NCBI GenBank assembly: GCA_041489005.1
Contig: JBGPQK010000008.1
Span: 6,602 to 70,601, forward strand
Direction of reading: 5' to 3'
Source: Anaerolineae bacterium
GTDB taxonomy: Bacteria > Chloroflexota > Anaerolineae > Anaerolineales > Villigracilaceae
Length of the DNA: 64,000 nucleotides
Below are positions 6,126 to 64,000 of this stretch, piece by piece. Both the position numbers and the translations under genes were made by a program. The notes below the pieces were generated by a model. The model was given only the letters and a program-made list of their open reading frames with translations. It was not told the origin of the DNA and ran no database searches. Positions within the stretch are counted from its first letter, which is position 1, and each line of letters begins with the position of its first letter.

Positions 6126-6623
6126 TTGCAAAGAGAGGCAGAGGTCTGCTGGAGTATAATTCAAGCAATGGAACTTCGTCCCCATACTTCCTTCCGTCCC
6201 TACATCGCATCGACGATCGTCCTTTTTATCATTGGCTGGGGGTGCGCAGCGCTCGCCGTCTTTACGCTTACCCCTACCGTCTGGGCACGTTGGTTGCTCT
6301 TCTTCGGTGGCACACTCGGACTCACCAGCCTCGCCCTGCCCGCCACCTGGTTCCTGAACCTGCGTTTTCCCGCCAAGTCGCCCGTCGGGACCGTTGTAAT
6401 TGTCCGGCAAGCCGTCTGGCTCGGTGTGTACGGGGCCTTGCTGACCTGGCTCCAGCAGGAGCGCCTGGTATCCTTGTGGACCGGCCTCGGTCTGGCCGCA
6501 GGCCTGACTGCCATCGAATACCTCATGCGCATGAGAGAGAATGCCCGCTGGCAACCCACCCCGAATTTACCATCAAGTACCATCGTGCCGCCTTCATCGG
6601 ATAATGACCAGTCGAAAGAATGA
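6126..6623 (+). CDS. hypothetical polytopic membrane protein (start uncertain: TTG 6126 or ATG 6168)
   Basis: Four hydrophobic helices (IASTIVLFIIGWGCAALAVF, WLLFFGGTLGLTSLAL and others). The stop overlaps the selA start by 4 nt. No family recognised. Confidence 0.45.
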   Translation: MQREAEVCWSIIQAMELRPHTSFRPYIASTIVLFIIGWGCAALAVFTLTPTVWARWLLFFGGTLGLTSLALPATWFLNLRFPAKSPVGTVVIVRQAVWLGVYGALLTWLQQERLVSLWTGLGLAAGLTAIEYLMRMRENARWQPTPNLPSSTIVPPSSDNDQSKE

Positions 6624-7996
6624 ACCTGCGCGGACTTCCCTCTGTTGAACAATTACTCCAAACCCAATTGGCTGCTGAACTCATCGCGAGTTACGGCCGC
6701 CCGTTAACGTTAAAAGCCATCCGTAGCGCAATGGACGAGGCGCGGAAGGACGTTTCGAAGCTCAGCGAGGCCACCTTGCCCGACCGGGAAACCCTCCTCA
6801 TCCACACAGCATCCCGGTTGCACCTGTGGACAGCCCCGACGCTGCTGTCCGTCATCAATGCCAGTGGTGTCATCCTGCACACCAACCTGGGCCGCGCCCC
6901 GCTTTCAATCGCCGCCATCCAGTCCATGGATGCTGTCTCGCGCGGCTACTCAAATCTTGAATTCAACCTGGAAACCGGCAAACGCGGAAGCCGCCAGATC
7001 CACACCGAGGCATTGCTCCAGGAATTGACCGGTGCAGAGGCTGCGTTGGTGGTCAATAATAATGCTGCGGCCGTTCTGCTGGTTTTATCTTCCCTTGCGA
7101 ATAAGAAACGCGTGATCGTTTCCCGTTCGCAACTGGTCGAAATCGGCGGTGGGTTTCGCATCCCCGATGTGATGAGGCAGTCAGGAGCAAAACTGGTCGA
7201 AGTCGGCACAACCAACCGCGTTCACCTTTCAGATTACGAAGAAGCCCTGTCCGTACCAACCGCACTGGTAATGCACGCTCACCACTCAAACTTCAAAATG
7301 ATCGGCTTTACCATAGAGCCTGAACGAAAAGAAATCGCGGACCTCGCCCACAAATTCGGGGTTATATTCGCAGACGACCTCGGGTCTGGGACGCTGCTGG
7401 CGACTGAACTCTACGGGCTGGCTCACGAACCGACTGTTCAAGAATCGCTCGCAGCCGGTGCAGACCTGGTTTGTTTTTCCGGAGATAAGTTGCTCGGCGG
7501 CCCGCAGGCAGGCATCCTCATCGGTAAAGCCGACCTGCTGGCGAAAATCAAGAAGCACCCGTTGGCGCGTGCCCTGCGCGCCGATAAACTCTGCCTGGCC
7601 GCGTTGACGGCTACTCTGCTACACTATATCAAGGATGAGGCTGAGCGTGAAATCCCCATCTGGCGCATGATTTCAGCATCTCCAACGCAGGTGAAGGAAC
7701 GTGCGGAATACTGGGCTGCCAAACTTGGACAGGGCGAAGTGCTGGCAAGCGAATCCACCGTCGGCGGCGGAAGCTTGCCCGGCGAATCCCTGCCGACCTG
7801 GGTCCTTGCGCTTACCGTCAATAGTTCCGACAGGTTTATGGAAAAACTGCGCCAGGAACAACCACCGGTCATTGCCCGCACCGTAAATGACCGTATCCTG
7901 CTCGATCCACGCACAGTCCTGCCTGAGCAGGATGGAGTATTGCTGGTCAATCTGGCAAAAGTCCTTCAATCTCAAAAGCGCAAGCGTAATCCTTGA
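6620..7996 (+). CDS. selA: L-seryl-tRNA(Sec) selenium transferase
   Basis: N-terminal LPSVEQLLQ, VINASGVILHTNLGRAP, and FSGDKLLGGPQAGI carrying the PLP lysine. Confidence 0.88.
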   Translation: MNLRGLPSVEQLLQTQLAAELIASYGRPLTLKAIRSAMDEARKDVSKLSEATLPDRETLLIHTASRLHLWTAPTLLSVINASGVILHTNLGRAPLSIAAIQSMDAVSRGYSNLEFNLETGKRGSRQIHTEALLQELTGAEAALVVNNNAAAVLLVLSSLANKKRVIVSRSQLVEIGGGFRIPDVMRQSGAKLVEVGTTNRVHLSDYEEALSVPTALVMHAHHSNFKMIGFTIEPERKEIADLAHKFGVIFADDLGSGTLLATELYGLAHEPTVQESLAAGADLVCFSGDKLLGGPQAGILIGKADLLAKIKKHPLARALRADKLCLAALTATLLHYIKDEAEREIPIWRMISASPTQVKERAEYWAAKLGQGEVLASESTVGGGSLPGESLPTWVLALTVNSSDRFMEKLRQEQPPVIARTVNDRILLDPRTVLPEQDGVLLVNLAKVLQSQKRKRNP

Positions 7997-10532: not shown

Positions 10533-11780
10533 ATGAAATCCGACCTCGACGCTCATATGCAAACGAAGAATCTCGATGCTATCCTTGTAATCGGCGATGC
10601 CACCCACAACCCGCCCATGTATTATTTGACCGGTGGAGGGCACGTTACCGGCGCGACCCTTATCAAGAAGCGCGGGAGCGAACCCGTATTATATTGCAAT
10701 GATATGGAACGCGAAGAGGCCGCTAAGTCGGGATTAAAGGTCATCCCATACAGCACCTACAATTTCGACTCCCTTTTAAAGGAAGCTCAGGGTGATCCAG
10801 GTCTAGCTTCGGCCATCCGGTATAAACGCATGTTCACCGATCAGGGCATGCACGGACGGGTCGGCATCTACGGCAACACGGATTTGGGGTCGGCCTTCGC
10901 CATCTTTGCCCATTTGCAGAAACTCATGCCTGAGTTCGAACTGGTTGGCGAGACTCGTGACAATTCTCTCTTCATGTATACCATGGAGACGAAGGACGAG
11001 GCCGAAGTCGCCCGCATCCGTAAGATGGGCAAAGTCACCACCACGGTCGTGGGGCGCGTCGCCGGGTATCTCACCAGCCGAGAGGTCCGGAAAGATGAAG
11101 TCTTGTTAAAAGAAGATGGTTCCCCGTTGACCATTGCAGATGTCAAATCCCGCATCGACCTGTGGCTGGCTGAACTGGGCGCTGAGAACCCTGAAGGGAC
11201 GATCTTTGCCATCGGTCGCGATGCGGGTATCCCCCACTCCGCCGGTACACCCACCGACCTGTTGCGCCTGGGCCAGACTATTGTCTTCGACATCTACCCG
11301 TGCGAAGCGGGCGGCGGCTATTTCTACGATTTCACCCGAACCTGGAGTCTGGGCTATGCCACTCCCGAGGCGCAGAGACTATATGACGAGGTAAAAACCG
11401 TTTTTGATAAGGTTCAGGAGAATCTCGACCTGAATGCGCCATTCAAAGACTATCAACGCTTGGTATGCGAAGAGTTCGAGAAGAACGGACACAAGACCCC
11501 GCTCAACACACAAGCGCCGGTGGAAGGCTACGTTCACTCGCTGGGACACGGCGTTGGGCTGAACATACACGAACGGCCCTGGTCTGGTCTGACTGCCGCG
11601 GACGATAACATCCTGAAACCGGGCGTGGTTATTACCAGCGAGCCGGGCTTGTATTATCCCGAAAAAGGCATGGGTATCCGCATCGAAGATACGCTCTTGG
11701 TTCGCCCGGATGGGACAATGGAAGTCTTGGCTGAGTATCCTTATGATTTTGTGTTGAAAATGAAGAAATGGAAGATGTAA
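10533..11780 (+). CDS. M24-family Xaa-Pro aminopeptidase
   Basis: Metal-ligand context VFDIYP...YFYDFTRT, HSLGHGVGLNIHE, EPGLY and IRIEDT. Confidence 0.85.
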   Translation: MKSDLDAHMQTKNLDAILVIGDATHNPPMYYLTGGGHVTGATLIKKRGSEPVLYCNDMEREEAAKSGLKVIPYSTYNFDSLLKEAQGDPGLASAIRYKRMFTDQGMHGRVGIYGNTDLGSAFAIFAHLQKLMPEFELVGETRDNSLFMYTMETKDEAEVARIRKMGKVTTTVVGRVAGYLTSREVRKDEVLLKEDGSPLTIADVKSRIDLWLAELGAENPEGTIFAIGRDAGIPHSAGTPTDLLRLGQTIVFDIYPCEAGGGYFYDFTRTWSLGYATPEAQRLYDEVKTVFDKVQENLDLNAPFKDYQRLVCEEFEKNGHKTPLNTQAPVEGYVHSLGHGVGLNIHERPWSGLTAADDNILKPGVVITSEPGLYYPEKGMGIRIEDTLLVRPDGTMEVLAEYPYDFVLKMKKWKM

Positions 11781-13684: not shown

Positions 13685-14556
13685 ACCTGTACTTCCAGCA
13701 GCCGGTCGTGACCGGCAATGTCTTTGTGCAGTTGAACCCGGGCGTTCGTAAAAGCATCAGACGCCAATGACAGCACCGCCGGACCTTCAGACGCTTCGAT
13801 TTCCATCAGCAGCAAGCCTCCGGGGATAAGCTGGTGGGGGACTTCTGCCAGGATCCGGCGGATGAGCGTCAGCCCGTCAGGACCGCCATCGAGAGCCAGT
13901 GTCGGTTCGCGACCATACACAGGGATTTTATACAGGGTGCTGGATGGAATATATGGCGGGTTGGATACGATCAGGGAGAAGGAATCGGAGATAGCAGGGT
14001 TGGGAAACAGGTCGGTCTCGAGAAAAGTGATATCTCGAGAGACATTCATTTTTTCGGCATTACGGCGAGCAACTTTCAAAGCAGCAAAGGAAATGTCGGT
14101 GGCAGTGATTGATAAGCCCACTACATTGACCGCCATGGAAATTGCAATGCAACCAGAACCGGTGCCCACATCCATTACTCTCAACTCCCGACTCCCGGGT
14201 TCCGACTTTCTCAACCAGGCAATCGCCCGCTCAACCAGCATTTCGGTCTCCGGGCGGGGGATGAGCACATCGGGCGTTACTTCGAACTCCAGGCCGAAAA
14301 ATTCCCAATGACCGACGATGTACGGGAGCGGCTTGCCTCCCTCCAGGCGCGCAACAAGCGTTTCCAATCCGGCATTCTGGCTTCTGGTCAGGGGCTCTTC
14401 TGAGTGGGCCAGCACCCAGGAACGCGGTTTGTCCAACAGGCACGCCAACAACATTTGGGCATCCAGGCCCGGCATGTCACTTGTCATTTTCAAACGGGTA
14501 ATTAGACCGCCGAGGGTTTCCCCAATGGTCTTTCCACGGGCCTTACTCGGCACCAT
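13681..14556 (-). CDS. prmC: release-factor glutamine N5-methyltransferase
   Basis: SAM motif DVGTGSGCI and catalytic SNPPYIP. The track ORF extends to 14625. The ATG at 14556 reduces the overlap with the prfA 3' end (about 80 nt from 14625) to 14 nt. Confidence 0.85.
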   Translation of the reverse strand: MVPSKARGKTIGETLGGLITRLKMTSDMPGLDAQMLLACLLDKPRSWVLAHSEEPLTRSQNAGLETLVARLEGGKPLPYIVGHWEFFGLEFEVTPDVLIPRPETEMLVERAIAWLRKSEPGSRELRVMDVGTGSGCIAISMAVNVVGLSITATDISFAALKVARRNAEKMNVSRDITFLETDLFPNPAISDSFSLIVSNPPYIPSSTLYKIPVYGREPTLALDGGPDGLTLIRRILAEVPHQLIPGGLLLMEIEASEGPAVLSLASDAFTNARVQLHKDIAGHDRLLEVQV

Positions 14557-23905: not shown

Positions 23906-25744
23906 TTACTTTCCTAGCCTCGCCCGTTCTTCTTCAATCACGCTTTCTTCCAACTTCTTGAACAGCGGCATAGGCTGGTTGAGTTTAGCGCCGGATTTCA
24001 ATTCGCTTGGCTTCCACTGCATCCCGTCAACGCCATGATACATCAGCACAGTATGCTCGCCGAGCGAGTCCTTCACGGTCTCGGTATAGGATTCCCCAAA
24101 CAGCGGACTCCCATTCCCAAGGAATCCATTCAGTTTCTCACTGGTGAATGGCAGGAATGGTGCGAACAAGACCTTCAACGAGTCGATCGCTTTCAGGGCG
24201 GTGTAGATGGTCAGGGCGGCTGATTCCTTGTCTGTCTTGACTGCCTGCCATGGCGCCATCTGGTCGAGGTACTGGTTGACGGTTGTCGCCAGGCGGAAGG
24301 CCTCCTGTAAGGCAGCCCGCAGTTTCACCGCCTCCAGCAGTCCACCCACAGACTGGAATCCGGCCTCGATTCCGGCCAGCATCTCCAGGTCTATGGGACG
24401 TAGAGGCAGTGGCTTGTCCTCGCCCACCTTGAAAGACGGCACATATCCTTCCCAGTGTTGATAACAAAAAGCCAGTACTCTATTCGCCAGGTTGCCCCAG
24501 GTGGCCACTAATTCGCCGTTGTTTTTGGCGACAAATTCCTTCCAGTCCCAGTCAGAATCGTGATTCTCCGGCATGTTAACCGTCAAGTAGTAGCGTAAGG
24601 CATCCGGTTCGTACCGGGTCAGTGCCTCCCGGCCCCACACTGCCCAGTTGCGCGAACCGGAGATCTTCTGACCTTCCAAGTTCATGAATTGGTTGGCAGG
24701 CACATCGTAGGGCAACACCAGGCGTACCCCCTCCCCTGACGCTCTTTCCGCGATGGGGGAGGGCTTGGGTGGGGGTGCGAAGATCTGCAGGAATTGCTCC
24801 CCAGCGCCCATCAACTCGGCCGGCCACATTGCGGTGTGGAAGAAGATATTATCCTTGCCGATGAAGTAAAAAGCCCGCGCCAACGGGTCCACCCACCAGT
24901 TTTTCCAGGCATCGTGGTTGCCGTTGATCTTGGCCCACTCGATCGCCGCCGAAAGATAGCCGATGACCGCCTCGAACCAGACGTATAACCGCTTATCATC
25001 CCAACCCTTCACCGGCACAGGGATGCCCCAATCCAGGTCGCGCGTGATGGGCCGTGGCTTGAGTCCCTCAACTTCGATTTTCCGCAGCGATTCGCCCAGC
25101 ACCGTCTCGCGCATGTAGCCCGAGCGTTCACGCAGGAAGTTGGCAACCTCCGGTTCGAGTTTGGAGAGGTCTAGGTAGAAGTGCTCGGTCTCGCGCAGTT
25201 CGGGGGTGGAATCGTCCACTTTCGATTTCGGGTTGAGCAGTTTTTCGGGTTCGAGCACGTTGCCGCATTTATCGCACTGGTCCGAGCGCGCCCCCGGGTC
25301 GCCGCAAATGTAGCAGGTGCCTTCCACATAGCGGTCCGGCAGAAAACGTTTCGCCCCGGGGGAATACCACTGCATTGATTTCCGAGTGAACAGGAAGCCG
25401 TTCTTCTGCAAGGCCAGGAACATGGACTGCGCCACTTGGAAATGGTTTTCAGTGTGAGTGGTGGTGAAAAGGTCGTACTGGATGCCCAATTTCTGGAACA
25501 GGTCAAGAAATCCGTTGTGAAATTTCTTGTAGACTTCTTCGGCAGGTTTACCTTCTTTATCCGCCGCAATAGTAACCGGTGTGCCGTGCGAGTCCGTTCC
25601 GGAGACCATCAGCACGTTATTCCCTTTCAAGCGGTGGTAACGGGCAACAATGTCACCGGGCAGGTACGAACCGGTAATGTTGCCAACGTGGATCTCGGCG
25701 TTGGCGTAGGGCCAGGCGATGGCGATCAGGATGTTTTCGGTCAT
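23906..25744 (-). CDS. metG: methionine--tRNA ligase
   Basis: HIGH-type motif (PYANAEIHVGN), zinc knuckle CYICGD...CDKCG and a KMSKS variant KISGSRN. Confidence 0.92.
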   Translation of the reverse strand: MTENILIAIAWPYANAEIHVGNITGSYLPGDIVARYHRLKGNNVLMVSGTDSHGTPVTIAADKEGKPAEEVYKKFHNGFLDLFQKLGIQYDLFTTTHTENHFQVAQSMFLALQKNGFLFTRKSMQWYSPGAKRFLPDRYVEGTCYICGDPGARSDQCDKCGNVLEPEKLLNPKSKVDDSTPELRETEHFYLDLSKLEPEVANFLRERSGYMRETVLGESLRKIEVEGLKPRPITRDLDWGIPVPVKGWDDKRLYVWFEAVIGYLSAAIEWAKINGNHDAWKNWWVDPLARAFYFIGKDNIFFHTAMWPAELMGAGEQFLQIFAPPPKPSPIAERASGEGVRLVLPYDVPANQFMNLEGQKISGSRNWAVWGREALTRYEPDALRYYLTVNMPENHDSDWDWKEFVAKNNGELVATWGNLANRVLAFCYQHWEGYVPSFKVGEDKPLPLRPIDLEMLAGIEAGFQSVGGLLEAVKLRAALQEAFRLATTVNQYLDQMAPWQAVKTDKESAALTIYTALKAIDSLKVLFAPFLPFTSEKLNGFLGNGSPLFGESYTETVKDSLGEHTVLMYHGVDGMQWKPSELKSGAKLNQPMPLFKKLEESVIEEERARLGK

Positions 25745-42701: not shown

Positions 42702-42982
42702 TTTCGATGGAGCCCGGTCCTAAATTTATTAGTGTGCTTTGACACCGGAAGTTCAGTTCGAATAAATTGCATGGCTCCACATCCGGGAAAATTTTATTTT
42801 CCTAATACCATCTGACTGCACCTTTCACTGATTTCACTTTGCTGAATCGATTTCCAAGACATTCCCATGTTCACGCAGCCGCGCCCACTGGCAAAGCGAT
42901 CGAACATTAACAATTGACTGAACGTCCCTCCCTACGGAGACCAGCGATCTGAAAAAAAAGATGCCTTTTCAGGCGCCTTCGA

Positions 42983-43171
42983 GTTGCGGGGGCTGGACTC
43001 GAACCAGCGACCTCCAGGTTATGAGCACCAATCTCGCGTCGCACATTACAGACCGACGGGGTGCTGTTTTTGCCTGACCCGGTGGTTTGAGGTAGATAGG
43101 GGCCCGGCGAGCTAAAGTTGGATGATCAGCGAGCGGATTTTAGCACGAACGCAACCAGAACGCAAGTTCTG
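42983..43171 (-). repeat. repeat copy 1: conserved ~145-nt arm plus tRNA-Met(CAU) 3' half
   Basis: The minus strand ends with ...GCTCATAACCTGGAGGTCGCTGGTTCGAGTCCAGCCCCCGCAA. No matching 5' acceptor strand or D-arm is present. By hand alignment the arm differs from copy 3 at about 17 of ~147 positions. Confidence 0.8.
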
Positions 43172-43525
43172 AAACTATTGTTCAAAGCTCACAGCTCGGA
43201 CTTTATTATTTCCTTGAAATCCGTTTGGATGAAGTTATAAACCCTACGGGGTAATACCACAATTCCTACGGGTGTGATCGGATGGAATATTTGCACCATA
43301 CAGCATGGCTCTTGGTTTCCTTAGACAACAAGAACCAAGTTACCATGACCAAGCCTTTCCGTAAACTACTGAGAATAGTAAAAACGATGGTAAACTTAAA
43401 AAGGTTCAGTCAAGATTCTCACCCCGTTTGGGCGAAAATGATGGCAAAATTATTTCGACATGGAATTTCGGGATTATTTTATATTGACGTAGAATTCAGG
43501 TATCAGTTTTTTCATCGAGGGAGCA

Positions 43526-45550
43526 ATGGCTAAATATCTCAGATCAGTTCTCCTGCTCATGATCTTCCTGTTACCTGCCTGTGCCCAGACCAGCATACCT
43601 GCGCCGACCATCATCCCGCCTACAGGTTCAACAATCTCTATAACCACTCCCACAACTATCCCTTCTGTCACTCCTCAGCCATCTGTAACCTTGCAGCAGG
43701 ATGGTAGCCTCTATGCCGGTCCCGGCAACGCGGATTTTGAACAGGTTGCCTCTTTAAAAGCCGGTACGGATGTACTGCCTATAGCGACTTTTGGGGATTT
43801 TGTCCAGGTCGCGACCATCGTGGATGGTCAGGAACTGCATGGATATGTCTGGAAAAATATCCTGGCGGCATTGCCCGCCGGCCTGCCGGCATTGGCCAGC
43901 GCATCTGTTCCCTGGCAGCCACTTTACCTGCCGGATTGTTCGCCGGGGAACTATACCGCAGCCACCGACGCCGTTGTGTTCTCTAATGACAGCAGTGCTT
44001 ATTTGGATAACGAAAGCAGCGCCATTCCTTTGGCAGAACCGCTCAGTATTGCCATCGGTAGCGCTGCTGCCACCCCAGGCGATGGCGCACCTGCGATCAA
44101 GATCCTTGGCAGCCCTGAGCAGCCCAGCGGAGATTGGTGGAAAGGCATCACCCGCCTGGATCTTGGATACATGAATGGCAATTACTATATCGGCATCCGG
44201 GATGGCACCAAGGCCGATTATGTCGTTTATCGGGAACTGCCGATCAAGGCCGATCAAACCATCCAACTTGCCTTTGACCAAATCGAGGGAAAGAGTTTCC
44301 GCATTCTGGACGGGAACAGGCAGAAAATTCTATCTATGGATCTGACCACCACACAAGGCGTGAATCTGCCAAACGGCTTGTTTCCTAAAGGCGTCGTCTA
44401 CATCGGTACCACGCTCCCAGCGCATAGCACCTTCAATGTGACAGGATTGCGGATCGGTGTTCTAGCCTCCGGTCAATGGATGCAGGCACAGAACGGTTAT
44501 TACACCCAACCTGGGCTGGCAGAGCTGGCAGTATCCCACCATGTCACCATCGGGACGGAGTTTTCGGTCGGATATACCTCCGACCCGCGTTACTGCCGGA
44601 CCATGCAGCGGGACTTCAACGTGGCTGTTCTGAGCGAATTTTCCTCGCCCGCCATGTGGCTGGGCATCAGTCAATACGATTTCAGCGCCATTGATCAGGC
44701 CGTGGATTACGCCTCCCGCCACGGCTGGCGTATCCGCGCCTCGCACCTGTTATGGGGCAACCCCGATATTCTTCCCGATTGGCTGAAGAACAGTCACTAC
44801 CCTCGCGAGCAGTATATCCAGATCATGGAACAGTACATCAAAGATGTCGTTGGGCGCTACCGCGGTCGCGTCCAGGAGTGGAGCATTGCCAATGAAGCCA
44901 TCAGCCGCTCCTTCTCATCGGGTACGGATTTTTGGAATGACAAGATCGGCCCGGACTACATTTCGCTGGCCTTCATCACTGCCAGGCAGGCTGACCCCGA
45001 GGGCCTGTTGATCTTCAACGATTACAACAACCAGGCCCCCCAGGATGCCCTGCAAGCGAGTATCATCAACAAGATGTATACCACCGTAAGACAGCTCAAG
45101 GCAGGGGGCGTACCCATCGACGTGGTCGGGATGCAAATGCACCTTTTCATGCCCTGGCTCAGCAGTTCCTTGCTGCCTCAGAAAGCAGCTGTGGTTGCCA
45201 CCATGCAAAAGTTTGCCGCCCTGGGTGTGCGGATCTATGTTACCGAGATGGATGCGGATCTGGCCAGACAGCCGGGCAGCCAGGTCGAGAAATGGGCTTT
45301 TGAAGCCGGGGTTTATCGCGATATTATGGAAGCCTGTATCGAGTCGGGTGTTTGCAACAGTTTTGCCACTTGGGGTATCTCGGATGCGACTTCCTGGATT
45401 TCCTGCGCTTCGAATGGTTGCCTGAATGAAAAGAATGCCGACCCACTCATGTTCGATCCTTCCTATGCCCCCAAACCGGCTTACTTTGCCGTACGGGATG
45501 CTCTCCAGACGGATTTTACCGTCACACCTATTACCACCCCGACGAAATGA
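43526..45550 (+). CDS. GH10-family (endo-beta-1,4-xylanase-like) lipoprotein with an N-terminal SH3-like domain and an unknown middle domain
   Basis: Lipobox LLPAC. An SH3b-like segment (LYAGPG...GYVWKNIL). The C-terminal ~330 aa carry GH10-like motifs: WSIANEA (acid/base region) and YVTEMD (nucleophile region). Confidence 0.72.
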   Translation: MAKYLRSVLLLMIFLLPACAQTSIPAPTIIPPTGSTISITTPTTIPSVTPQPSVTLQQDGSLYAGPGNADFEQVASLKAGTDVLPIATFGDFVQVATIVDGQELHGYVWKNILAALPAGLPALASASVPWQPLYLPDCSPGNYTAATDAVVFSNDSSAYLDNESSAIPLAEPLSIAIGSAAATPGDGAPAIKILGSPEQPSGDWWKGITRLDLGYMNGNYYIGIRDGTKADYVVYRELPIKADQTIQLAFDQIEGKSFRILDGNRQKILSMDLTTTQGVNLPNGLFPKGVVYIGTTLPAHSTFNVTGLRIGVLASGQWMQAQNGYYTQPGLAELAVSHHVTIGTEFSVGYTSDPRYCRTMQRDFNVAVLSEFSSPAMWLGISQYDFSAIDQAVDYASRHGWRIRASHLLWGNPDILPDWLKNSHYPREQYIQIMEQYIKDVVGRYRGRVQEWSIANEAISRSFSSGTDFWNDKIGPDYISLAFITARQADPEGLLIFNDYNNQAPQDALQASIINKMYTTVRQLKAGGVPIDVVGMQMHLFMPWLSSSLLPQKAAVVATMQKFAALGVRIYVTEMDADLARQPGSQVEKWAFEAGVYRDIMEACIESGVCNSFATWGISDATSWISCASNGCLNEKNADPLMFDPSYAPKPAYFAVRDALQTDFTVTPITTPTK

Positions 45551-45678
45551 TCGGCACCCTCACTCTTCACCTGCATCTCCCTGGCTGCGGCTCATTTAAA
45601 AGAAAAACGCGGACGGCATAAGCGCGCTGCTGGCGCGCCTGCACCGCCAGTTCAATGTATCTGCAGCAGTTACAGTCT
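45547..45678 (+). pseudogene. DUF503 (YlxP-like) gene relic, frameshifted and truncated
   Basis: The ATG overlaps the GH10 stop (ATGA). It reads MIGTLTLHLHLPGCGS..K.KR, and after two frame changes LLARLHRQFNVSAAV, matching the DUF503 N-terminal pattern. The rest of the gene is missing. Confidence 0.5.
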
Positions 45679-46053
45679 GCCTATCTTTGTTAGCCCTTTA
45701 ACCTATTAAAGAACTTCTCTTCTACCGGAGAGTATATACTCGTTATTAAGCTGTCAAAAGGCAACAAGCCTGGCGATTTCTGCTAGATATGTTCTTCCTC
45801 CCGAATGCGGGGGCCTGTGCCAACGGTGGTAATTTTAAAACTATCAAAGCCCCAACCATGTGTGTCACCCGGGCGATCAATGTCACAATCAACTCCTAGC
45901 CAGGCACCGTAAACCCACTGATCAAACCCAAACCTGTCTCCCACCTCGATCGACCCGGCGGACTAGTCATACTCAAAATACCAAATAAAGGAAGTGCTCC
46001 AGCATCAGTCCGGTGTATAATTTTTGATCAGCTAAGCTTGAGTCGGAGGTTCG

Positions 46054-46857
46054 ATGTCTACATTCAGAGAAAAATACGGACCTTGGGCACTTGTCACCGG
46101 TGCTGCCATGGGACTGGGAGCAGAATTTGCCCGGCAATTGGCCAAAAAGGGATTAAACCTGGTTCTTGTAGATATTAAAGCCGAACCCTTGTCAGACATA
46201 TCCAAGACATACTCTCGCGAGTTCAACGTTGGCGTCCGACCAATCGTTTTGGACCTGGCTCACGGGATTTTCTCATCCCAGTTGATCCCTGCTACCAGCG
46301 ACCTCGAAGTTGGATTACTGGTGAACAATGCAGGGATCTCAGCCATCGGTCATTTTCTGGACGTGCCTCTTGAAAAACATTTATCCATCCTTGCCATCAA
46401 CGCCCGGGCGCCTCTGATGCTGGCCCATCACTTTGGCGGGCTTATGCGTGAGAGAAAACGCGGCGGGATCATTTTTGTCTCCTCCGTGTCAGCCATTGTA
46501 GGGACAAGTTATGTCAGCGAGTATTCAGCCACCAAGGCGCATGACCTGGCATTGGGTGAAGCTCTTTGGGAGGAATTACGATCCTTCAATGTGGATGTGC
46601 TAACAACGATCGTCGGAGCGACTGATACTCCTGGCTGGCGGGCAGAAAATGCCAGGCCAGATGCGAAAACCTGGCCGCCTGTCATGAAAGCCGAGGATAC
46701 AATCCGCGAAACACTCGCTGCACTGGGGAAGACATCTAGCTTTGTGCCTGGCGCACAAAACCGTTTCGCCACTTTCCTTACATCACGCCTGCTCTCGCGT
46801 AAGACCGCGATCGAGACGACAGGAAAAGAAATGGATAAGAGGTATGGGAAGAAGTGA
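46054..46857 (+). CDS. short-chain dehydrogenase/reductase (SDR)
   Basis: TGAAMGLGAEFA (TGxxxGxG), NNAG and the YSATKA catalytic Tyr/Lys. Confidence 0.85.
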   Translation: MSTFREKYGPWALVTGAAMGLGAEFARQLAKKGLNLVLVDIKAEPLSDISKTYSREFNVGVRPIVLDLAHGIFSSQLIPATSDLEVGLLVNNAGISAIGHFLDVPLEKHLSILAINARAPLMLAHHFGGLMRERKRGGIIFVSSVSAIVGTSYVSEYSATKAHDLALGEALWEELRSFNVDVLTTIVGATDTPGWRAENARPDAKTWPPVMKAEDTIRETLAALGKTSSFVPGAQNRFATFLTSRLLSRKTAIETTGKEMDKRYGKK

Positions 46858-47242
46858 GATGATCGCGGAGAGTATGACGATCGGGTGCTGTACAGTTCTC
46901 TCGTCGGGCGAGGCCATGAGACCTCGCCCTGACCTTGACCGGAGGTCTCTTCCAGCGTGTTGACCAGATCAACGGGCCTTTTTCTTTCCCGGCTCCTCCT
47001 GCAGATCAAGAGCATCCGTGCGTCAAGCGCTTGATATGAACAGGGCATAGCGGAAGGAGAATTCCTCATGTTCGATGCTCCCACATCCGTAGGCAGGCCA
47101 TATCACCTTGCCCCTACATTTACCTATTCAAAGATAGCAGCGGGTTTTGGACCAGAAGAGGGATTCTGTTTTACTTATTTGGTAAAAATGGATCATGTGA
47201 TATTCATCTGAATAGTCCCCAATGTTTGTGCCAGTTATCATG

Positions 47243-47297
47243 TGAGGCTGGAACCAACGACCCAGAGGTTATGAGCTCCAATCTAATTTCGCACATT
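47243..47297 (-). repeat. truncated, degenerate copy of the tRNA-half repeat
   Basis: The minus strand reads GAATGTGCGAAATTAGATTGGAGCTCATAACCTCTGGGTCGTTGGTTCCAGCCTCAC. It aligns to the junction of the arm and the tRNA 3' half in the full copies. Confidence 0.6.
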
Positions 47298-47305
47298 CTT
47301 AAAGG

Positions 47306-47331
47306 AAAAAGTGCCATTTCAGGCACTTTTT
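47306..47331. terminator. symmetric hairpin associated with the repeat unit
   Basis: AAAAAGTGCC-ATTTCA-GGCACTTTTT. Homologous hairpins precede copy 3 (51736-51759) and, in degenerate form, copy 1 (about 42953-42978). Confidence 0.55.
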
Positions 47332-47352
47332 CACTCTCTTTGGGACTAATTT

Positions 47353-47542
47353 AGTTGCGGGGGCTGGACTCGAACCAGCGACCTCCAGGTTATGAGCATC
47401 AATTTTGCGTCGCACATTACAGACCGACGGGTTGCTGATTTTGCCTAACCCGGCGGTTTGAGATAAATTGGGGCCCGGCGAGCTAAAGTTGGGTAATCAG
47501 CGACCGGATTCTAGCACGGAAACAATCAGAACGCAAGTTCTG
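47353..47542 (-). repeat. repeat copy 2: conserved arm plus tRNA-Met(CAU) 3' half
   Basis: Same tRNA 3' half as copy 1. Its arm differs from copy 3 at only about 4 positions by hand alignment. Confidence 0.8.
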
Positions 47543-47748
47543 TTCTCTTTCGTAAAGACTAAAGTGAATTGCAATATTCTTCAACTGCTTTAGAGGATAT
47601 ATACCATACCCGCCCATTCTTGATCGCTTCGAGCCGGCCCCTGTAAGCGCAAGAAGACTCAGGTATCCGGAGTGTATGGTGTTCCCTTCACCGCACCAGA
47701 GAGAGGAATCTACATTGAATCCATCTTGGGTTTTTCGGCTTGAGGAAT

Positions 47749-48227
47749 TCAGGCCTCCACATACATCGTCAGGTTGCGCTCGACTGCCCGTCTAACGAAA
47801 TTGACTAATCGCTCAAACTGTCCCCCGTCCGCTAACGCAAGTACGGTTTAGTATTGACGCCGGTTGACGTGGAATATAGCGGTTGGCGGGTACCCGGCGC
47901 GCATCAAAATCAGGTTTATCACATGGCGCGCCGTCCGTCCATTGCCCTCTACAAAAGGATGGATGGAAACCAGACGGAAGTGCGCCAACGCTGCCAATCC
48001 AACAGGATGTGTGGATATTTCTGATTTCTTGAGCCAACCTCCCCACTCATCCATCTTTCGCGCAACTTCCCACGACTCGGACCATAGATACTGGACCAGG
48101 AGATTAGCACCTGGGTTTTCCGGAATTGTCCTGCCTCGTCATTGTCAATGTTGGTCAGTACAAGTTTGTGGATTTGACGAACATGGAACGGCGTAAATGC
48201 CTCCATCCCCGATGCTAGACTTTCCAC
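47749..48227 (-). pseudogene. Fic-domain protein pseudogene
   Basis: The N-terminal part (FHVRQIHKLVL...GQFRKTQV) is in one frame. The Fic motif HPFVEGNGRTARHV is in another frame. An in-frame TAA follows NRRQY, and a recognisable C-terminus (TVLALADGGQFERLVNFV) comes after it. Confidence 0.7.
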
Positions 48228-48301
48228 CTATTCAAGCGCATCCTTATGATTGATGCAGAATCGCTAAGTTGGAAGAGATAGGTTCAGACCTTGAGTTCGC
48301 A

Positions 48302-48751
48302 TCAACCTGCTTCTACTTCGTCAAGCACAATTACGTTTAATTCGATTACCCGTTTAAGGGTATCGTCGTTTGTTAGAAAAGCATCACAGTCAGCTGCAAG
48401 TGCTGCGGCTGCTTGAAACGCATCAGATAGAGTGAGGTTGTAACGAGCGCGCAGATCCGCAGCTTGACTGGCAATCTGGTCCTCAATAACCACAAAGGTC
48501 ATGTTGTCACTTCTGCTCAACATTCGTATAAAGGATTGAGCAACATCCGGTTTCCCCAACCGGAACGGCAGTACCAGACATTCTGAAAGCGTCACCGGAG
48601 AAGCCACGCCCGCAAGAGTCCCATCATCCAGATGTTCAAATACTACCTGCACTTTTTGCAGGTAGTTCCGATTCTTCTCAACGAAATATATTACTGGTGC
48701 TGTATCGAGAAAAATACGATGAACGTTCTTTAGTTTAGAGGAAATCTTCAT
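48302..48751 (-). CDS. vapC: PIN-domain toxin (VapC family)
   Basis: Acidic quartet contexts FLDTAP, LSEC, LSDAFQ and LTND. Overlaps the upstream antitoxin gene by 4 nt. Confidence 0.85.
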   Translation of the reverse strand: MKISSKLKNVHRIFLDTAPVIYFVEKNRNYLQKVQVVFEHLDDGTLAGVASPVTLSECLVLPFRLGKPDVAQSFIRMLSRSDNMTFVVIEDQIASQAADLRARYNLTLSDAFQAAAALAADCDAFLTNDDTLKRVIELNVIVLDEVEAG

Positions 48752-49005
48752 AAATCATGATTCAACTGACGATCACGTTGAGCAGTGTCTTCACGCCGAG
48801 TACGTGAAATATAGGCCTGGGCATCTTCACCGTAAGCAGGGTAGGGTAGCATCCCACGCAAGTGTCGCCATTTAAGAGGTTTACCGTTTTTAGCAGGTAT
48901 CTCTTGTTTTACACCCTCAATCAGGCGCGACGCCAAGGTCAAACGTTCTGCCGGAGTAAGTCGGGCAGCTTGTTTGAGGACATTTTCGATGGATTGAGCA
49001 GCCAT
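48748..49005 (-). CDS. putative VapB-type antitoxin
   Basis: 85-aa ORF translationally coupled to vapC. The call rests on position and size. Confidence 0.6.
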   Translation of the reverse strand: MAAQSIENVLKQAARLTPAERLTLASRLIEGVKQEIPAKNGKPLKWRHLRGMLPYPAYGEDAQAYISRTRREDTAQRDRQLNHDL

Positions 49006-49094
49006 ATGTTAATCCTTTCGTTTTACTCCAATCAACCAATAACATAACCATTATACACTGTTGCGCTTCAGTATTGACAATAATGGATTGTGGT

Positions 49095-51023
49095 TCAACC
49101 GACTCCTACAATATCATACCCCAAGGCTTTATATCCTTTTCTTCGTTTCTCAAACATCCCTTTTAGGACAGGTACTTGTCCATCTACATAATCATAGATA
49201 AGCACATCAGTCTTCAATTCATATAAACGGTGCAATCGGCCAGCATATTGAGCCAATGTTCCACGCCAAGAAATCGGTAGAGCAAGAAAAAGCGTATCCA
49301 AACGCGCGTCATCAAAACCTTCTCCTAAATAGCGTCCCGTGGCTAGAATCAATCGCTCTTCGTTACTCGAGATCCGTCTTAATTGCTCTTCGATGATCTG
49401 TCGTTGTTTTTTACCCATACCGCCCGACATAACAATAACATTTTTAATTTGTGATTTGAGTTTATCTGCCAATAGCGCCAGATGTTCGCGGCGCTCAGTT
49501 AATAGTACAGGCGAACGTCCGCTATGTACAGCAGTGATCACGTCCTCAATAATCAACGCATTCCGTTCCTCGTTACTCGTCAGAGCGCTGTACAAATCCT
49601 GGATTGCCATAGGTGAATAATTTTCCTCCACGGGAGGCGCGCAAAATTCAGTTCGCCTGATAATGACCTTATGACTGAATGGTCTAGCAGCAGCTTGCTT
49701 TCGATCATCTATCCGATATCTTATTGGCCCACACTGCATAAAGACGATGGGTTGGTGACCATCCTTGCGAGTCACTGTTGCTGAAAGCCCCAAAACATAT
49801 TTGGCTTTGGCTTGTCTCGCCACAAGTTCGAAACTGCTGGCGGAAATATGATGGCACTCATCAAAGATGATCTGACCGTATTCTCCAACAAAATCGCTGA
49901 TCTTCCCCTTCTTCCCGAGGCTTTGGATCATAGCAACATCAACCAGTTTAGTAGGCTTGGTCCGTCCACCACCAATTTGACCGATCTCTTTCTTATCCAG
50001 GTTTAAAAACGCACCTAAGCTGGCAATCCATTGATCGAGAAGCTGTCTGCGATGAACAACCACAAGAGTATTAACTTTACGCTGGGCAATCAAATAACAT
50101 GCGACTACTGTTTTTCCGAAGGCCGTTGATGCCGATAACACGCCGGTATCGAACTGCAGTAATCTATCCGCTACAGATTGTTGTTCGGATCGTAATGAAC
50201 CATTGAAATTTACATCGATGGAGTTGCCTTCAAAACGCTCATCTTTTATCACAACCCTGATTTTTAGCGAATTTAACAGCCCCACCACATCCTCAAGACA
50301 CCCTCTTGGTATTCCAAGGTGATTCGGGAATTCTTCGCAGCAACTGATAATGCGAGGTTTGTTATATGTTGAAAGACGCATTGCTTGCGCCTTGTAAAAT
50401 TCCGGATTCTGAAAAGCAGCCAGTCTGATTAAACGGTTACGGAACGAGGGAGATAACCCCTCCTTCGGAATATACACTTGATTGTTTAAGATCAAGGTAA
50501 TTTCTTCAGGAAATGGTCCCAAGATCGGCGCTTCTGTTGAAGTCCTCGATGGTAACATCTTCCAGGGCTCCGCTTCGTTTTCATCCACTAAAGGCATTCG
50601 AATCCCGGTCAATTCACCTTGTTGTTTTTCAGCTTCTTCGACCACCTGTATGATTCTCGTTTTATCTATTCTTTGAACAGTTGAAAAAAACGCCCATTGA
50701 TCTGGGTATGGCACCAAAGTTTGATCGACAAGAACACTGTTTCCGTGATCACGAGGTTTCTTTTGCAATGGTAAAGCGATCAGGTTACCAAATCCTCCCC
50801 TGGGCAATGTATCCTGACTTGGAAAGAGTCGATCATAAGAATCCAACCCCAATTCAGGTCTGCGACGCATGGTTTCGGTAAGTAAAAAAGTACCCACCTT
50901 CCGAGCCAGAACTGCCGATACAGGTTCCGAGAAGTAAATCCATACGTGACCGCCGTTTCCGGACCTCGAGCGTTCTAACACTGCTGGGATATTGCGCAAA
51001 TCGCAGCTCTCAAGAAAAGCCAA
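49095..51023 (-). CDS. SF2 (DEAD/DEAH, ResIII-type) helicase; distal part of an AEP primase-polymerase/helicase fusion
   Basis: AEP motif II RSRSGNGGHVWIYF. Helicase motifs TAFGKTVVA (I), FDECHH (II), LSAT (III) and QYAGRLHR (VI). The annotated TTG start is in frame with ORF 51036-51554 across a single TAG. Confidence 0.8.
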   Translation of the reverse strand: MAFLESCDLRNIPAVLERSRSGNGGHVWIYFSEPVSAVLARKVGTFLLTETMRRRPELGLDSYDRLFPSQDTLPRGGFGNLIALPLQKKPRDHGNSVLVDQTLVPYPDQWAFFSTVQRIDKTRIIQVVEEAEKQQGELTGIRMPLVDENEAEPWKMLPSRTSTEAPILGPFPEEITLILNNQVYIPKEGLSPSFRNRLIRLAAFQNPEFYKAQAMRLSTYNKPRIISCCEEFPNHLGIPRGCLEDVVGLLNSLKIRVVIKDERFEGNSIDVNFNGSLRSEQQSVADRLLQFDTGVLSASTAFGKTVVACYLIAQRKVNTLVVVHRRQLLDQWIASLGAFLNLDKKEIGQIGGGRTKPTKLVDVAMIQSLGKKGKISDFVGEYGQIIFDECHHISASSFELVARQAKAKYVLGLSATVTRKDGHQPIVFMQCGPIRYRIDDRKQAAARPFSHKVIIRRTEFCAPPVEENYSPMAIQDLYSALTSNEERNALIIEDVITAVHSGRSPVLLTERREHLALLADKLKSQIKNVIVMSGGMGKKQRQIIEEQLRRISSNEERLILATGRYLGEGFDDARLDTLFLALPISWRGTLAQYAGRLHRLYELKTDVLIYDYVDGQVPVLKGMFEKRRKGYKALGYDIVGVG

Positions 51024-51035
51024 AGCATCATCAGA

Positions 51036-51554
51036 CTAGGTGGATTTATCAAAATCAACAGCTAAAAACCAGCAGTTTTCATCAATACACATTGGGTAAA
51101 CACCAATTGTAAAGTCCCGACCAGACCGATCGGTCGGATCAGCTCCTAAAAGATGAGAACGGATTACATCATTGCTAAGTGGAATAAAATCTCGGGCTGA
51201 ACATTCAGCGCAAGTAATCTTTGGCTTGAGACAGACGCCATTGACCCATTCATTTCGGCAAACCGGCTGGTATCCAGATTTTCCCGTCCGAACATTCTCA
51301 AACCTGCGCGGAAATGCATCTTCTCGCCCTCTGAACAAAGCACGGAATAGAGCTATTTTTTCTTCCTGATCGGATTGATTATTGACTGCTACATTCGGCA
51401 ATTGGAGCGCAAGTTGAGCCGGCTGATCAAGCAGAGCCTTTTGTTGCCGAAGCTGCTTTATACGCGCTATCAATTCTGCGCGATGGCTGTCTAAAGCAAG
51501 AAGCTCATTATCGGCTTCGGCTAACAGTCGATCTATTTCAATATACGACATCAT
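51036..51554 (-). CDS. N-terminal part of the AEP primase-polymerase/helicase fusion (coiled coil, Cys cluster, AEP motif I)
   Basis: FRGREDAFPRRFEN...GYQPVCRNEW...C..C and the DxD motif FLAVDFDK. It ends at a TAG that is in frame with 49095-51023. Confidence 0.7.
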   Translation of the reverse strand: MMSYIEIDRLLAEADNELLALDSHRAELIARIKQLRQQKALLDQPAQLALQLPNVAVNNQSDQEEKIALFRALFRGREDAFPRRFENVRTGKSGYQPVCRNEWVNGVCLKPKITCAECSARDFIPLSNDVIRSHLLGADPTDRSGRDFTIGVYPMCIDENCWFLAVDFDKST

Positions 51555-51735
51555 ATCTTTATTCTACTGTGAATCTCTAGAGTCTCAGAAGAAGATAATG
51601 TTATATTGGAGGCATCTCACTGCATGGCTATCTAATCAGATTCTTGATTTCTCCACTTTGTTGTAGCAGGGGAAGGATCCGAAGCAATGAGCCGTTAGTT
51701 ACGAGCCCCTAACCTATTCGTATATTTTTAAAGCT

Positions 51736-51759
51736 AAAAAGTGCCTCAAAAGGCACTTT
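51736..51759. terminator. hairpin associated with repeat copy 3
   Basis: AAAGTGCC-TCAAAA-GGCACTTT, homologous to 47306-47331. Confidence 0.5.
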
Positions 51760-51768
51760 CCATTTGGA

Positions 51769-51951
51769 TGGCTTAGGCTTCAACCTTAGACCTCCGGATT
51801 ATGAGCATCAATTTTGCGTCGCACGTTACAGACCGACGGGTTGCTGATTTTGCCTGACCCGGCGGTTTGAGATAAATTGGGGCCCGGCGAGCTAAAGTTG
51901 GGTAATCAGCGACCGGATTCTAGCACGGAAGCAACCAGAACGCAAGTTCTG
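51769..51951 (-). repeat. repeat copy 3: conserved arm plus a degenerate tRNA-like 3' half
   Basis: The arm is nearly identical to copy 2. The tRNA-like part keeps GCTCATAATCCGGAGGTC, but the T-arm and acceptor are diverged (CTAAGGTTGAAGCCTAAGCC). Confidence 0.75.
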
Positions 51952-51991: not shown

Positions 51992-52240
51992 ATGTTACGA
52001 AAAGTTTTCAGAACAGGCAACAGCACGGTAGTTTCTTTACCGAAGGATGTAATTGATCCGCTGGGCGTTAGAGATGGTTCGGACGTTTCCGTGGAACTGG
52101 ACCGCGAACACCGTCAAATAATTATCCGACCAGTGGATAAGCCAATCGCCGCAGCCGGCGTGGATGAGGATTTCGCCCGCCAGGTGAGCGAGTTCATTGC
52201 CGAATACCGCCCCGCCCTGAATTCTCTGGCGAAGAAATGA
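51992..52240 (+). CDS. AbrB/MazE/SpoVT-fold antitoxin
   Basis: MLRKVFRTGNSTVVSLPKDV is the swapped-hairpin DNA-binding motif. AAGGAG RBS. Overlaps the doc start. Confidence 0.8.
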   Translation: MLRKVFRTGNSTVVSLPKDVIDPLGVRDGSDVSVELDREHRQIIIRPVDKPIAAAGVDEDFARQVSEFIAEYRPALNSLAKK

Positions 52241-52629
52241 AATATCTGACTTCCGAACAGGTATTATTCATTCATGCACGCCTGATCGCTGAAACGGGAG
52301 GCAGCCACGGGGTGCGTGACCTGGTCCGGCTGGAATCGGCGGTAGCCCGCCCGCAGGCCGCGTTTGGCGGCAAAGAATTGTATCCGGATGTGTTCCTGAA
52401 GGCGGCCGCATTGCTGGATTCGCTGATCAACAACCACCCTTTTGTGGACGGCAACAAACGGACCGGGATCACTGTCGCAGCGCTTTTTTTGCAGGCCAAC
52501 GGTCGACAATTGACAGCCAATCCCGCCGAACTCGAAGAATTTACCCTGCAGGCAGCCACTTCTCATCCCGACCTTCCCATTCTTGCCGATTGGCTCCATC
52601 GGCAGAGTCAGAATACGGGGAAAAAATAA
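52237..52629 (+). CDS. doc: death-on-curing (Doc) family toxin, Fic fold
   Basis: HPFVDGNKRTG Doc-type Fic motif, 130 aa. Confidence 0.85.
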   Translation: MKYLTSEQVLFIHARLIAETGGSHGVRDLVRLESAVARPQAAFGGKELYPDVFLKAAALLDSLINNHPFVDGNKRTGITVAALFLQANGRQLTANPAELEEFTLQAATSHPDLPILADWLHRQSQNTGKK

Positions 52630-63852: not shown

Positions 63853-64000
63853 CCGGTTTGAGGCTCTTCCTCCAGTACTAACCGGAGGAAGAAGGGCCCT
63901 TGTTTGTAAATTTCAAGACGAGAGCTCGGATACACAATAGGGTGTGGTAAGCCGCCTGGGCGTCACCTCAAACCTGTCAAATCGGGCAAATCGCTGGACA

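Follow-up and report, generated by a model that had tools for sequence, protein, structure and literature searches.

A stretch of 64,000 nucleotides from an Anaerolineae bacterium (Chloroflexota; family Villigracilaceae; GenBank assembly GCA_041489005.1, contig JBGPQK010000008.1, positions 6,602 to 70,601), referred to below as the window, carries an array of direct repeats in which the 3' half of a tRNA-Met(CAU) gene is joined to a conserved arm. These repeats are probably the attR-type junctions of a composite island, formed as small elements of one family inserted serially into the initiator tRNA-Met (tRNA-fMet) gene of Anaerolineae-like Chloroflexota. On this reading the array belongs to the attR side of an island that grew by accretion in tandem and then decayed, with integrase-less units similar to cis-mobilisable elements (CIMEs). 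The process is a well known one; in the present case the phylum has been little studied and the integrase genes have been lost. Four things are directly established: the anatomy of the repeats, the presence of an intact tRNA and an integrase in relatives, a single breakpoint and the independent origin of the three arms.

A repeat search of the window returned a single family of direct repeats in three copies (A, 42956-43171; B, 47327-47542; C, 51736-51951), with the other two copies 83% and 81% identical to the reference copy and with no inverted repeats. A sequence-only reading had described three full copies and one truncated copy, alike in orientation and spaced 4371 and 4409 bp apart, and this was confirmed by the repeat search and by pattern counts. 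The invariant arm 23-mer CCAACTTTAGCTCGCCGGGCCCC occurs three times in the window against 0.00 expected, and for the core pattern GCTCATAAYCNNNRGGTC the count is four against an expected 0.01, the fourth occurrence (47259-47276) being the truncated copy. A profile built from 14 arm copies matches just these four places in the window, and all four tRNA 3' halves are oriented alike on the minus strand. Read along that strand, a full copy opens with an arm of ~145 nt that begins with the palindrome AGAACTTGCGTTCT, passes through the core G/CTCATAA (the slash marking the breakpoint discussed below) into the rest of the tRNA 3' half and ends in a hairpin followed by a T-run. The half after the core consists of CCTGG, AGGTC, GCTGG-TTCGAGT-CCAGC and CCCCGCA, which are the 3' anticodon stem, the variable loop, the T arm and the acceptor end. 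The components of the array are as follows.

42917-42949, minus strand: fragment like the variable-loop and T-arm region of halves with a T-loop insertion (GATCGCTGGTC-TCCGTAGGGAGGGACGTTC)
42952-42980, minus strand: weak hairpin and T8 run after copy A (read directly; missed by the terminator scan)
42984-43026, minus strand: tRNA-fMet 3' half, copy A (G, CTCATAA, CCTGG, AGGTC, T arm, CCCCGCA, A)
43027-43171, minus strand: arm, copy A (ARM1 family; P-arm side of an attR-type junction)
47237-47297, minus strand: truncated copy, the final ~22 nt of an arm and a different tRNA(CAU)-like 3' half, in a block homologous to L002:4249-4451
47300-47332, minus strand: intrinsic terminator after copy B, 11-bp stem (terminator scan)
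47355-47397, minus strand: tRNA-fMet 3' half, copy B
47398-47542, minus strand: arm, copy B (ARM1 family; homology to L009 on to 47818)
51664-51712, minus strand: degenerate second half upstream of the AEP gene (weak profile match, E = 7; cf. L001:7620-7660, L002:7415-7456)
51736-51760, minus strand: terminator hairpin and T-run after copy C (read directly)
51765-51806, minus strand: divergent tRNA-like 3' half, copy C (same layout of arm, divergent half and AEP gene in L010)
51807-51951, minus strand: arm, copy C (ARM1 family; 96% identical to arm B as far as GCTCATAA)

The half of copy A matches without a difference that of the intact tRNA in two related loci (L001 and L014), and the hairpin and T8 run that follow it are a degenerate tRNA-type terminator. 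The segment 42936-43171 as a whole matches L016 and L018. Two of the earlier statements on the repeats need a small correction. The arm of ~145 nt is present, and homology to some relatives extends beyond it, reaching ~43268 (~100 nt farther) in copy A and ~47818 in copy B. The common 3' half stands for copies A and B and not for copy C, where only 22 of the 37 positions after TCATAA are identical. It had also been claimed that the 3' half is present without its 5' half. This is in agreement with the absence from the whole window of any tRNA gene detectable by ARAGORN and of a matching tRNA 5' half, even when 3 mismatches were allowed.

Intact tRNA genes, integrases and the breakpoint in related loci

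Relatives (loci with L numbers) were found through the contexts of homologues of the AEP-helicase encoded in the window, through a metagenome scan with an invariant 19-mer of the arm and through homologues of the integrase described below. The metagenome scan gave 13 loci, 12 of them true arm copies and one (L019) a chance match, while a genome scan with the same 19-mer gave just the metagenome-assembled genome containing L001 and one chance match (L006). L027 has the same arrangement as the window and is another assembly of the same strain.

An intact tRNA-Met with this 3' half, which the sequence-only reading had placed outside the window, was found in close relatives. L001, a 672-kb contig of an 'uncultured Chloroflexia', contains at 7489-7561 an intact tRNA-Met(CAU) with the same 3' half, letter for letter, as copies A and B; next comes an AEP gene and then, ~6.2 kb downstream of the tRNA (13707-13883), an arm with a truncated half. 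In L014 an intact tRNA-Met(CAU) at 1223-1295 is followed by a 3.9-kb integrase-less unit encoding HigBA and VapBC and then by an arm and half. The order from tRNA to arm and half in both loci is the placement expected of attL and attR. The intact tRNA of L001 has C1 opposite A72, a mismatch, together with an A11:U24 pair, features that mark a bacterial initiator tRNA. The chromosomal order Peptidase_M32, ~310-aa protein, tRNA-fMet is conserved in ten loci (L001, L014, L021-L023, L035-L039), L021/L022 and L035-L039 being near-duplicate captures of one arrangement. L002 contains six halves with other arms, which part units carrying toxin-antitoxin pairs, a sigma factor, an AEP-helicase and an oxidoreductase.

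An arm next to an integrase gene, also looked for on the suggestion of the sequence-only reading, is present in L011 and L017, where the gene for a 331-aa tyrosine integrase starts ~85 nt after the arm and half with a 10-bp-stem terminator before it. Truncated copies of the gene follow the arm and half in L016, L018 and L020, and stubs of 14 codons do so in L008 and L013. The protein has Phage_integrase and SAM-like domains, and among the NCBIfam models it comes closest to XerA and XerD, without reaching the cut-off of any. The same integrase is encoded ~85-90 nt downstream of an intact tRNA-fMet in L021-L024 and L035-L039. Its relatives number 1436 at E <= 1e-30 and come chiefly from Anaerolineales and Chloroflexota; a scan of IMG/VR with the integrase gave no match. 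Phage and plasmid collections gave matches to the tRNA-Met part alone. The suggestion that the array represents tandem decayed or trans-mobilised islands at a tRNA-Met gene is thus supported by the intact tRNA and adjacent integrase of the relatives.

The crossover had been proposed to be that of a tyrosine integrase acting in the anticodon loop. Alignment on TCATAA of 27 non-redundant junctions placed the breakpoint at G/CTCATAA, within the anticodon loop, in all 27. To the left of this point lies a tRNA 5' half, an arm of the window type (ARM1), one of the arms ARM2 or ARM3, the arm of L025 or that of L040, or a stub of ~25 nt after a prior terminator, so that at least five arm types are represented. 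The right sides (integrase, primase-helicase and other flanks) vary independently of the left. An identical module of half, CCATAGCTCGCAAAGCTATGG terminator and integrase is found after a tRNA 5' half (L021, L023), after ARM1 (L008, L011, L015-L017) and after ARM2 (L002:11366), and ARM1 precedes at least 7 different right sides. Within the window the same change is seen between arms B and C, which are 96% identical over 163 nt up to the point at which their halves diverge. Left and right sides that assort freely about one point are what site-specific recombination in the anticodon loop leaves behind.

The three arms of the window differ in lineage. Arms A and B are 90.5% identical to each other, arm B is 97% identical to the arms of L015, L016 and L018 from other samples, and in their upstream extensions A and B resemble different metagenome subfamilies. 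This indicates that each window arm comes from its own lineage and records an integration of its own, and that the arms did not arise by duplication on the spot. Conservation of the arm is ~90% among 14 distinct ARM1 copies, apart from a 10-nt stretch of constant length, 69% conserved, between the block AGAACTTGCGTTCT and the block TGCTA(A/G)AAT.

Several further observations were made on the halves, arms and integrases. In some halves the T loop contains a hairpin-like insertion of 18-21 nt (GGTT-TCTCCCAGGGGGACGTCG-CGAGTC; L014:5228-5290, L016:8762-8821, L018:6310-6369), which may be the scar of a second, T-loop-specific element. At other sites a half and its terminator are followed ~25 nt on by a second, different tRNA(CAU)-like 3' half (CCCTTGGGTCG...). 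Such doublets occur in the window at 47237-47297 and 51664-51712 and in relatives at L001:7620-7660, L002:4377-4412, L002:7415-7456 and L009:764-804. The second half looks like a derivative of another tRNA-Met or tRNA-Ile2 gene, and the doublets imply that elements with different tRNA halves share the CTCATAA core. An ARM2-like arm and half is inverted 7 kb downstream of tRNA-fMet and integrase in L023 (16879-17046) and L024 (7152-7319), evidence that inversion takes place between att sites. Downstream of the 331-aa integrase, one or two convergent genes for larger tyrosine recombinases (327-432 aa) are often found, together with DUF5679 or HTH_17 genes (recombinases at L025:12748-16093, L035:9001-10098 and L040:8964-11864), and these may form a multi-recombinase module.

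Cargo and surroundings of the array

The segments bracketed by the repeats had been described as free of integrase, recombinase and transposase genes. A domain scan of 49 open reading frames of the window found no recombinase or transposase domain, and tblastn with four integrases found no integrase remnant in the window. The cargo consists of the following.

43526-46857, plus strand: unit B-A, genes for a GH10 glycoside hydrolase (43526-45550) and for a short-chain dehydrogenase (SDR; 46054-46857)
48302-49005, minus strand: cargo of unit C-B, a VapBC-like pair (85-aa protein and PIN-domain toxin)
49095-51554, minus strand: cargo of unit C-B, gene for an AEP (PrimPol, Pfam 'AEP-TOTE') and SF2 helicase protein (domain search)
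51992-52629, plus strand, opposite to the arm: MazE-Fic/Doc toxin-antitoxin pair directly upstream of arm C

The AEP-helicase gene is interrupted by an in-frame TAG at 51036-51038, where the intact homologues P0001-P0003 (85-92% identical) have Trp. L002 and L003 likewise have a split gene, with the break elsewhere, and homologues number more than 8000, chiefly from Chloroflexota. A functional link between the tRNA-like repeat and a 'TOTE' primase was considered and rejected: TOTE stands for TPR, OB, TBP and Effector, not for tRNA, the window has just the AEP-helicase, and the more distant AEP loci L004 and L005 have no tRNA piece upstream. A literature search on 'TOTE' with primase gave no match. 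Two small reading frames were likewise set aside. An 83-aa frame at 43282-43533, considered as a small arm-side gene or excisionase, has no family match, and an ATG-initiated frame of 23 codons across the half is lost in copy C.

The MazE-Fic/Doc pair is probably the last cargo of the next unit. Beyond it, upstream of copy C, a sugar-utilisation cluster (GH31/ROK/ABC-transporter/GH15) extends to the end of the window. A step in GC content, from 0.547 down to 0.491, coincides exactly with copy A, and the low GC persists to position 64000; the sugar cluster lies inside this low-GC region and may therefore be island cargo. To the left of copy A lie genes of core metabolism (a DinB-family protein, ETF and acyl-CoA dehydrogenases), with RF1, UvrC, SelA and MetRS farther off; the flanking genes have homologues with Chloroflexi, Anaerolineae or Anaerolineales annotations. 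Genes for SelA (selenocysteine synthase) and MetRS are present at 6620-7996 and 23906-25744, yet ARAGORN detects no tRNA gene of any sort in the window. Three independent short-read assemblies of the same strain (L026, L028, L029; position 1 = window 51901) end inside arm C, which indicates that the repeats fragment metagenome assemblies and hide such arrays.

Proposed mechanism and competing explanations

The order of events that we infer is as follows. The attP of an element would comprise an arm of ~145-250 nt, the core G/CTCATAA and the element's own copy of the tRNA 3' half with a terminator, and in complete elements the gene for the 331-aa XerD-like tyrosine integrase would follow. Integration by this enzyme at CTCATAA, with crossover in the anticodon loop, would rebuild the tRNA at one end (attL) and leave the arm and 3' half at the other (attR). 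Units would be stacked as newcomers integrated again and again at att sites already in place, and deletions would then strip the units of their integrases and leave CIME-like cargo units, in the window those with AEP-helicase and VapBC and with GH10 and SDR. Decay itself is seen in the truncated integrases and in the nonsense mutation of the AEP-helicase gene.

In the excised circle an outward promoter in the arm, probably under SOS repression, would read across attP to the integrase gene. The TGCTA(A/G)AAT block is read as a predicted promoter with an extended -10, which in arm A takes the form TTGCGT-17-TGcTAAAAT with the -10 at 43137-43142. A two-hexamer promoter scan misses the ARM1 element, whose -35 fits at 3 of 6 positions, and calls TTGACG-17-TACTAT at the equivalent place in the unrelated L040 arm. 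Promoter-like sequences are also present in the arms of L025 (TGCTATAAT), ARM2 (TGATATAAT) and ARM3 (GCTAGAAT). In all five arm types these elements face the half, at a distance from TCATAA of 105-113 nt (138-140 nt in ARM2) on its upstream side. At the outer edge of the window arms there is in addition a palindrome, AGAAC-N4-GTTCT, which in arm A lies over the -35 position.

43157-43170: AGAAC-N4-GTTCT, arm A
47528-47541: AGAAC-N4-GTTCT, arm B
51937-51950: AGAAC-N4-GTTCT, arm C

These are the three occurrences of the palindrome in the window, all in arms, against 0.07 expected. The shorter box GAAC-N4-GTTC is also found in the unrelated ARM2, directly after the -10 (L002:7178-7189, 11232-11243). 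GAAC-N4-GTTC is the LexA operator (Cheo-box type) of Bacillus and clostridia, and from work by Fernandez de Henestrosa and colleagues in 2002 it is reportedly the LexA operator of Dehalococcoides as well. The position of the palindrome over the predicted promoters of two unrelated arm families suggests that transcription across the att site may be under DNA-damage control. A further GAAC-N4-GTTC lies over the integrase start codon in L011, L016 and L017 but is broken in L021 and L023, and is probably a coincidence of coding.

Some observations weigh against serial insertion at the tRNA gene. The window has no intact tRNA, no integrase and no integrase remnant, and the canonical M32 flank is not found in it. 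Relatives with the DinB-ETF flank (L030, L034; block DinB-ETF-TetR-ACAD) have other genes beside DinB and lack a tRNA, arm or half there. Copy A is therefore not at an ancestral tRNA locus beside DinB, and the array has either been displaced by rearrangement or reaches more than 12 kb past the window. The island may run past position 64000, which is consistent with the low GC content up to the end of the window; alternatively, a rearrangement may have parted this section of the array from the tRNA. Neither the genome scan with the arm 19-mer nor exact look-ups nor the relatives with the DinB flank yielded an empty site, and no excised circle was observed. All units of the window and most of those in L002 and L014 are integrase-less, which means many losses if each once had its own integrase. 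Finally, the integrase apparently has no arm-binding domain, yet the arm is long and ~90% conserved.

The prevalence of integrase-less units (all in the window; also in L002, L014 and L001) is what would be expected if the arm and half were an attC-like cassette site, and if integrase-less cassettes were the normal mobile unit, shuffled in trans by one integrase encoded elsewhere. The small size of the units (2.5-6 kb), their wealth of toxin-antitoxin and defence genes, the association of one arm with very different cargo and the free assortment of left and right sides at one point would also fit such an integron-like system. We nevertheless consider it unlikely. Integrases and their truncated remnants are found inside the arrays at the expected attL-side position and attest directly to decay; with the integron-integrase model TIGR02249 (cut-off 265) the integrase reaches just 52.8 bits; and the sites are tRNA-derived, not imperfect hairpins, there being no inverted repeats. 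Integrase-less units are in any case already covered by the known model of CIMEs and accretion. There is no need for the cassette-bounding repeat of an undescribed kind that the sequence-only reading had offered as its other option. A local segmental duplication, or a generic dispersed repeat or miniature inverted-repeat transposable element that moved without site-specific recombination, could account for the like orientation and similar spacing of the copies, but is very improbable, as the segments between the copies are unrelated, the arms diverge from each other as much as from the copies of other samples and belong to different subfamilies, and terminal inverted repeats are lacking. Arm copies occur only beside tRNA halves, integrases or tRNA-fMet and are confined to such arrays; the many dispersed copies that had been named as a sign of a generic repeat were not found.

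The promoter-like elements raise the question of whether the arm and half are themselves an RNA gene. The predicted promoter and the terminator make a transcript of arm and half likely, and it may be asked whether the repeats are conserved as a functional chimeric RNA gene, made up of promoter, leader of ~105 nt, initiator-tRNA 3' half and terminator, which might act for example as an attenuating leader controlling the integrase or as a decoy for tRNA-fMet-directed toxins. The near-constant distance of the promoter-like elements from the core across arm families unrelated in sequence would agree with this, as would the presence of a terminator after every half and an arm that is ~90% conserved around a variable promoter spacer of fixed length. 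Changes in predicted helices are mostly wobble-compatible, and 5 of 45 pairs are changed on both sides against 2.2 in shuffles, a weak signal from a sample biased by the 19-mer bait and by close relatedness. Against it, Rfam gives no match at any threshold (gathering threshold or E <= 5 in the window, and none on the other arm types), and tmRNA, Y-RNA-like and other known RNAs were rejected as candidates since neither ARAGORN nor Rfam matched. The RNAalifold covariation term is close to zero (-0.29 kcal/mol) and the consensus fold differs between alignments of 3 and 14 sequences, while the five arm types give minimum free energy z-scores between -3.6 and +0.7 and share no architecture. The halves of copy C and L010 have lost the tRNA-like sequence yet keep the arm, and the presence of promoter and terminator is already accounted for, since integrase promoters are known to switch and the rebuilt tRNA has to be terminated. 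A structured arm and half RNA with its own function is thus unsupported, and conservation of the repeats as an RNA gene is quite improbable. It is likewise doubtful that the repeats represent one or other of two larger departures, a damage-inducible chimeric RNA in at least four unrelated arm families that controls integrase or recombination or counters tRNA-fMet toxins, or an attC-like exchange of cassettes in trans in Chloroflexota.

Relation to known integrative elements

Serial insertion into the initiator tRNA gene documents, for Anaerolineae-type Chloroflexota, a family of very small integrative elements specific to tRNA-fMet. Such elements build islands of defence, toxin-antitoxin and carbohydrate genes by accretion and decay, in parallel with tycheposon islands and the ssrA islands of Dehalococcoides, and current concepts are unchanged by these findings. 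The signature of arm and half, the core G/CTCATAA and the context of M32 and tRNA-fMet together provide a simple delimiter of such islands in metagenome-assembled genomes, in which assemblies often end at these repeats. The predicted SOS-boxed outward promoter offers a testable link between DNA damage and the mobility of the island.

Integration into tRNA genes was reportedly ordered by Williams in 2002 into a scheme of sublocations that includes crossover in the anticodon loop, and P22 and HP1 are examples of tyrosine-integrase elements that target the anticodon loop of tRNA genes. The elements described here share with tRNA-targeting islands and prophages an attP that would carry the tRNA from the anticodon loop to the 3' end, so that integration would rebuild the tRNA, a partial tRNA left as a direct repeat and, in relatives of the window, an integrase gene that adjoins the intact tRNA. 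They differ in their target, the initiator tRNA-Met of Chloroflexota, in their very small size and in their short XerD/XerA-like integrase without a recognisable arm-binding domain.

The CIMEs related to ICESt1 and ICESt3 of Streptococcus thermophilus are integrase-less units that keep attL and attR and are stacked by newcomers at resident att sites (PMC5704250). Units C-B and B-A of the window similarly keep att sites without an integrase and lie in tandem, and integrase-bearing and integrase-truncated units of the same family are both present in L016-L018; a difference is that no conjugation or mobilisation genes were seen here. The ssrA islands of Dehalococcoides, a member of the same phylum, are also in tandem and are parted by repeats of the 3' end of a small RNA gene, and 15 of them that have no integration module have been read as CIMEs (PMC3146451). 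In those islands the target is tmRNA, the repeat is 20 bp long and the recombinase is of the serine type, whereas the present elements have tRNA-fMet as their target, a 43-nt half with a long arm as their repeat and a tyrosine recombinase as their enzyme. The tycheposons of Prochlorococcus are small cargo elements at tRNA genes whose neighbours are parted only by a partial tRNA, with fragmented integrases, scattered partial tRNAs, primase/helicase modules and nutrient or defence cargo (bioRxiv 10.1101/2020.12.28.424599). The likeness to these is one of architecture alone, the phylum and the tRNA being different.

For the predicted arm promoter the nearest parallels are the Pcirc promoter of ICEclc, which faces outward at the integrase-distal end and is fused upstream of int on circularisation (PMC5812530), and ICEKp1, in which a state-dependent promoter switch operates and int, when integrated, lies behind the tRNA promoter and an attenuating stem-loop (PMC13023037). 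The same layout is seen here with a promoter that is predicted only, and the GAAC-N4-GTTC palindrome suggests SOS control. Integrons resemble the present array in consisting of promoter-less, integrase-less cargo units parted by recombination sites, with many toxin-antitoxin cassettes, and SOS-box control of recombination is known for intI. The array differs from integrons in that it has no IntI-type integrase, no attC hairpins and no attI/Pc platform, its sites being derived from a tRNA.

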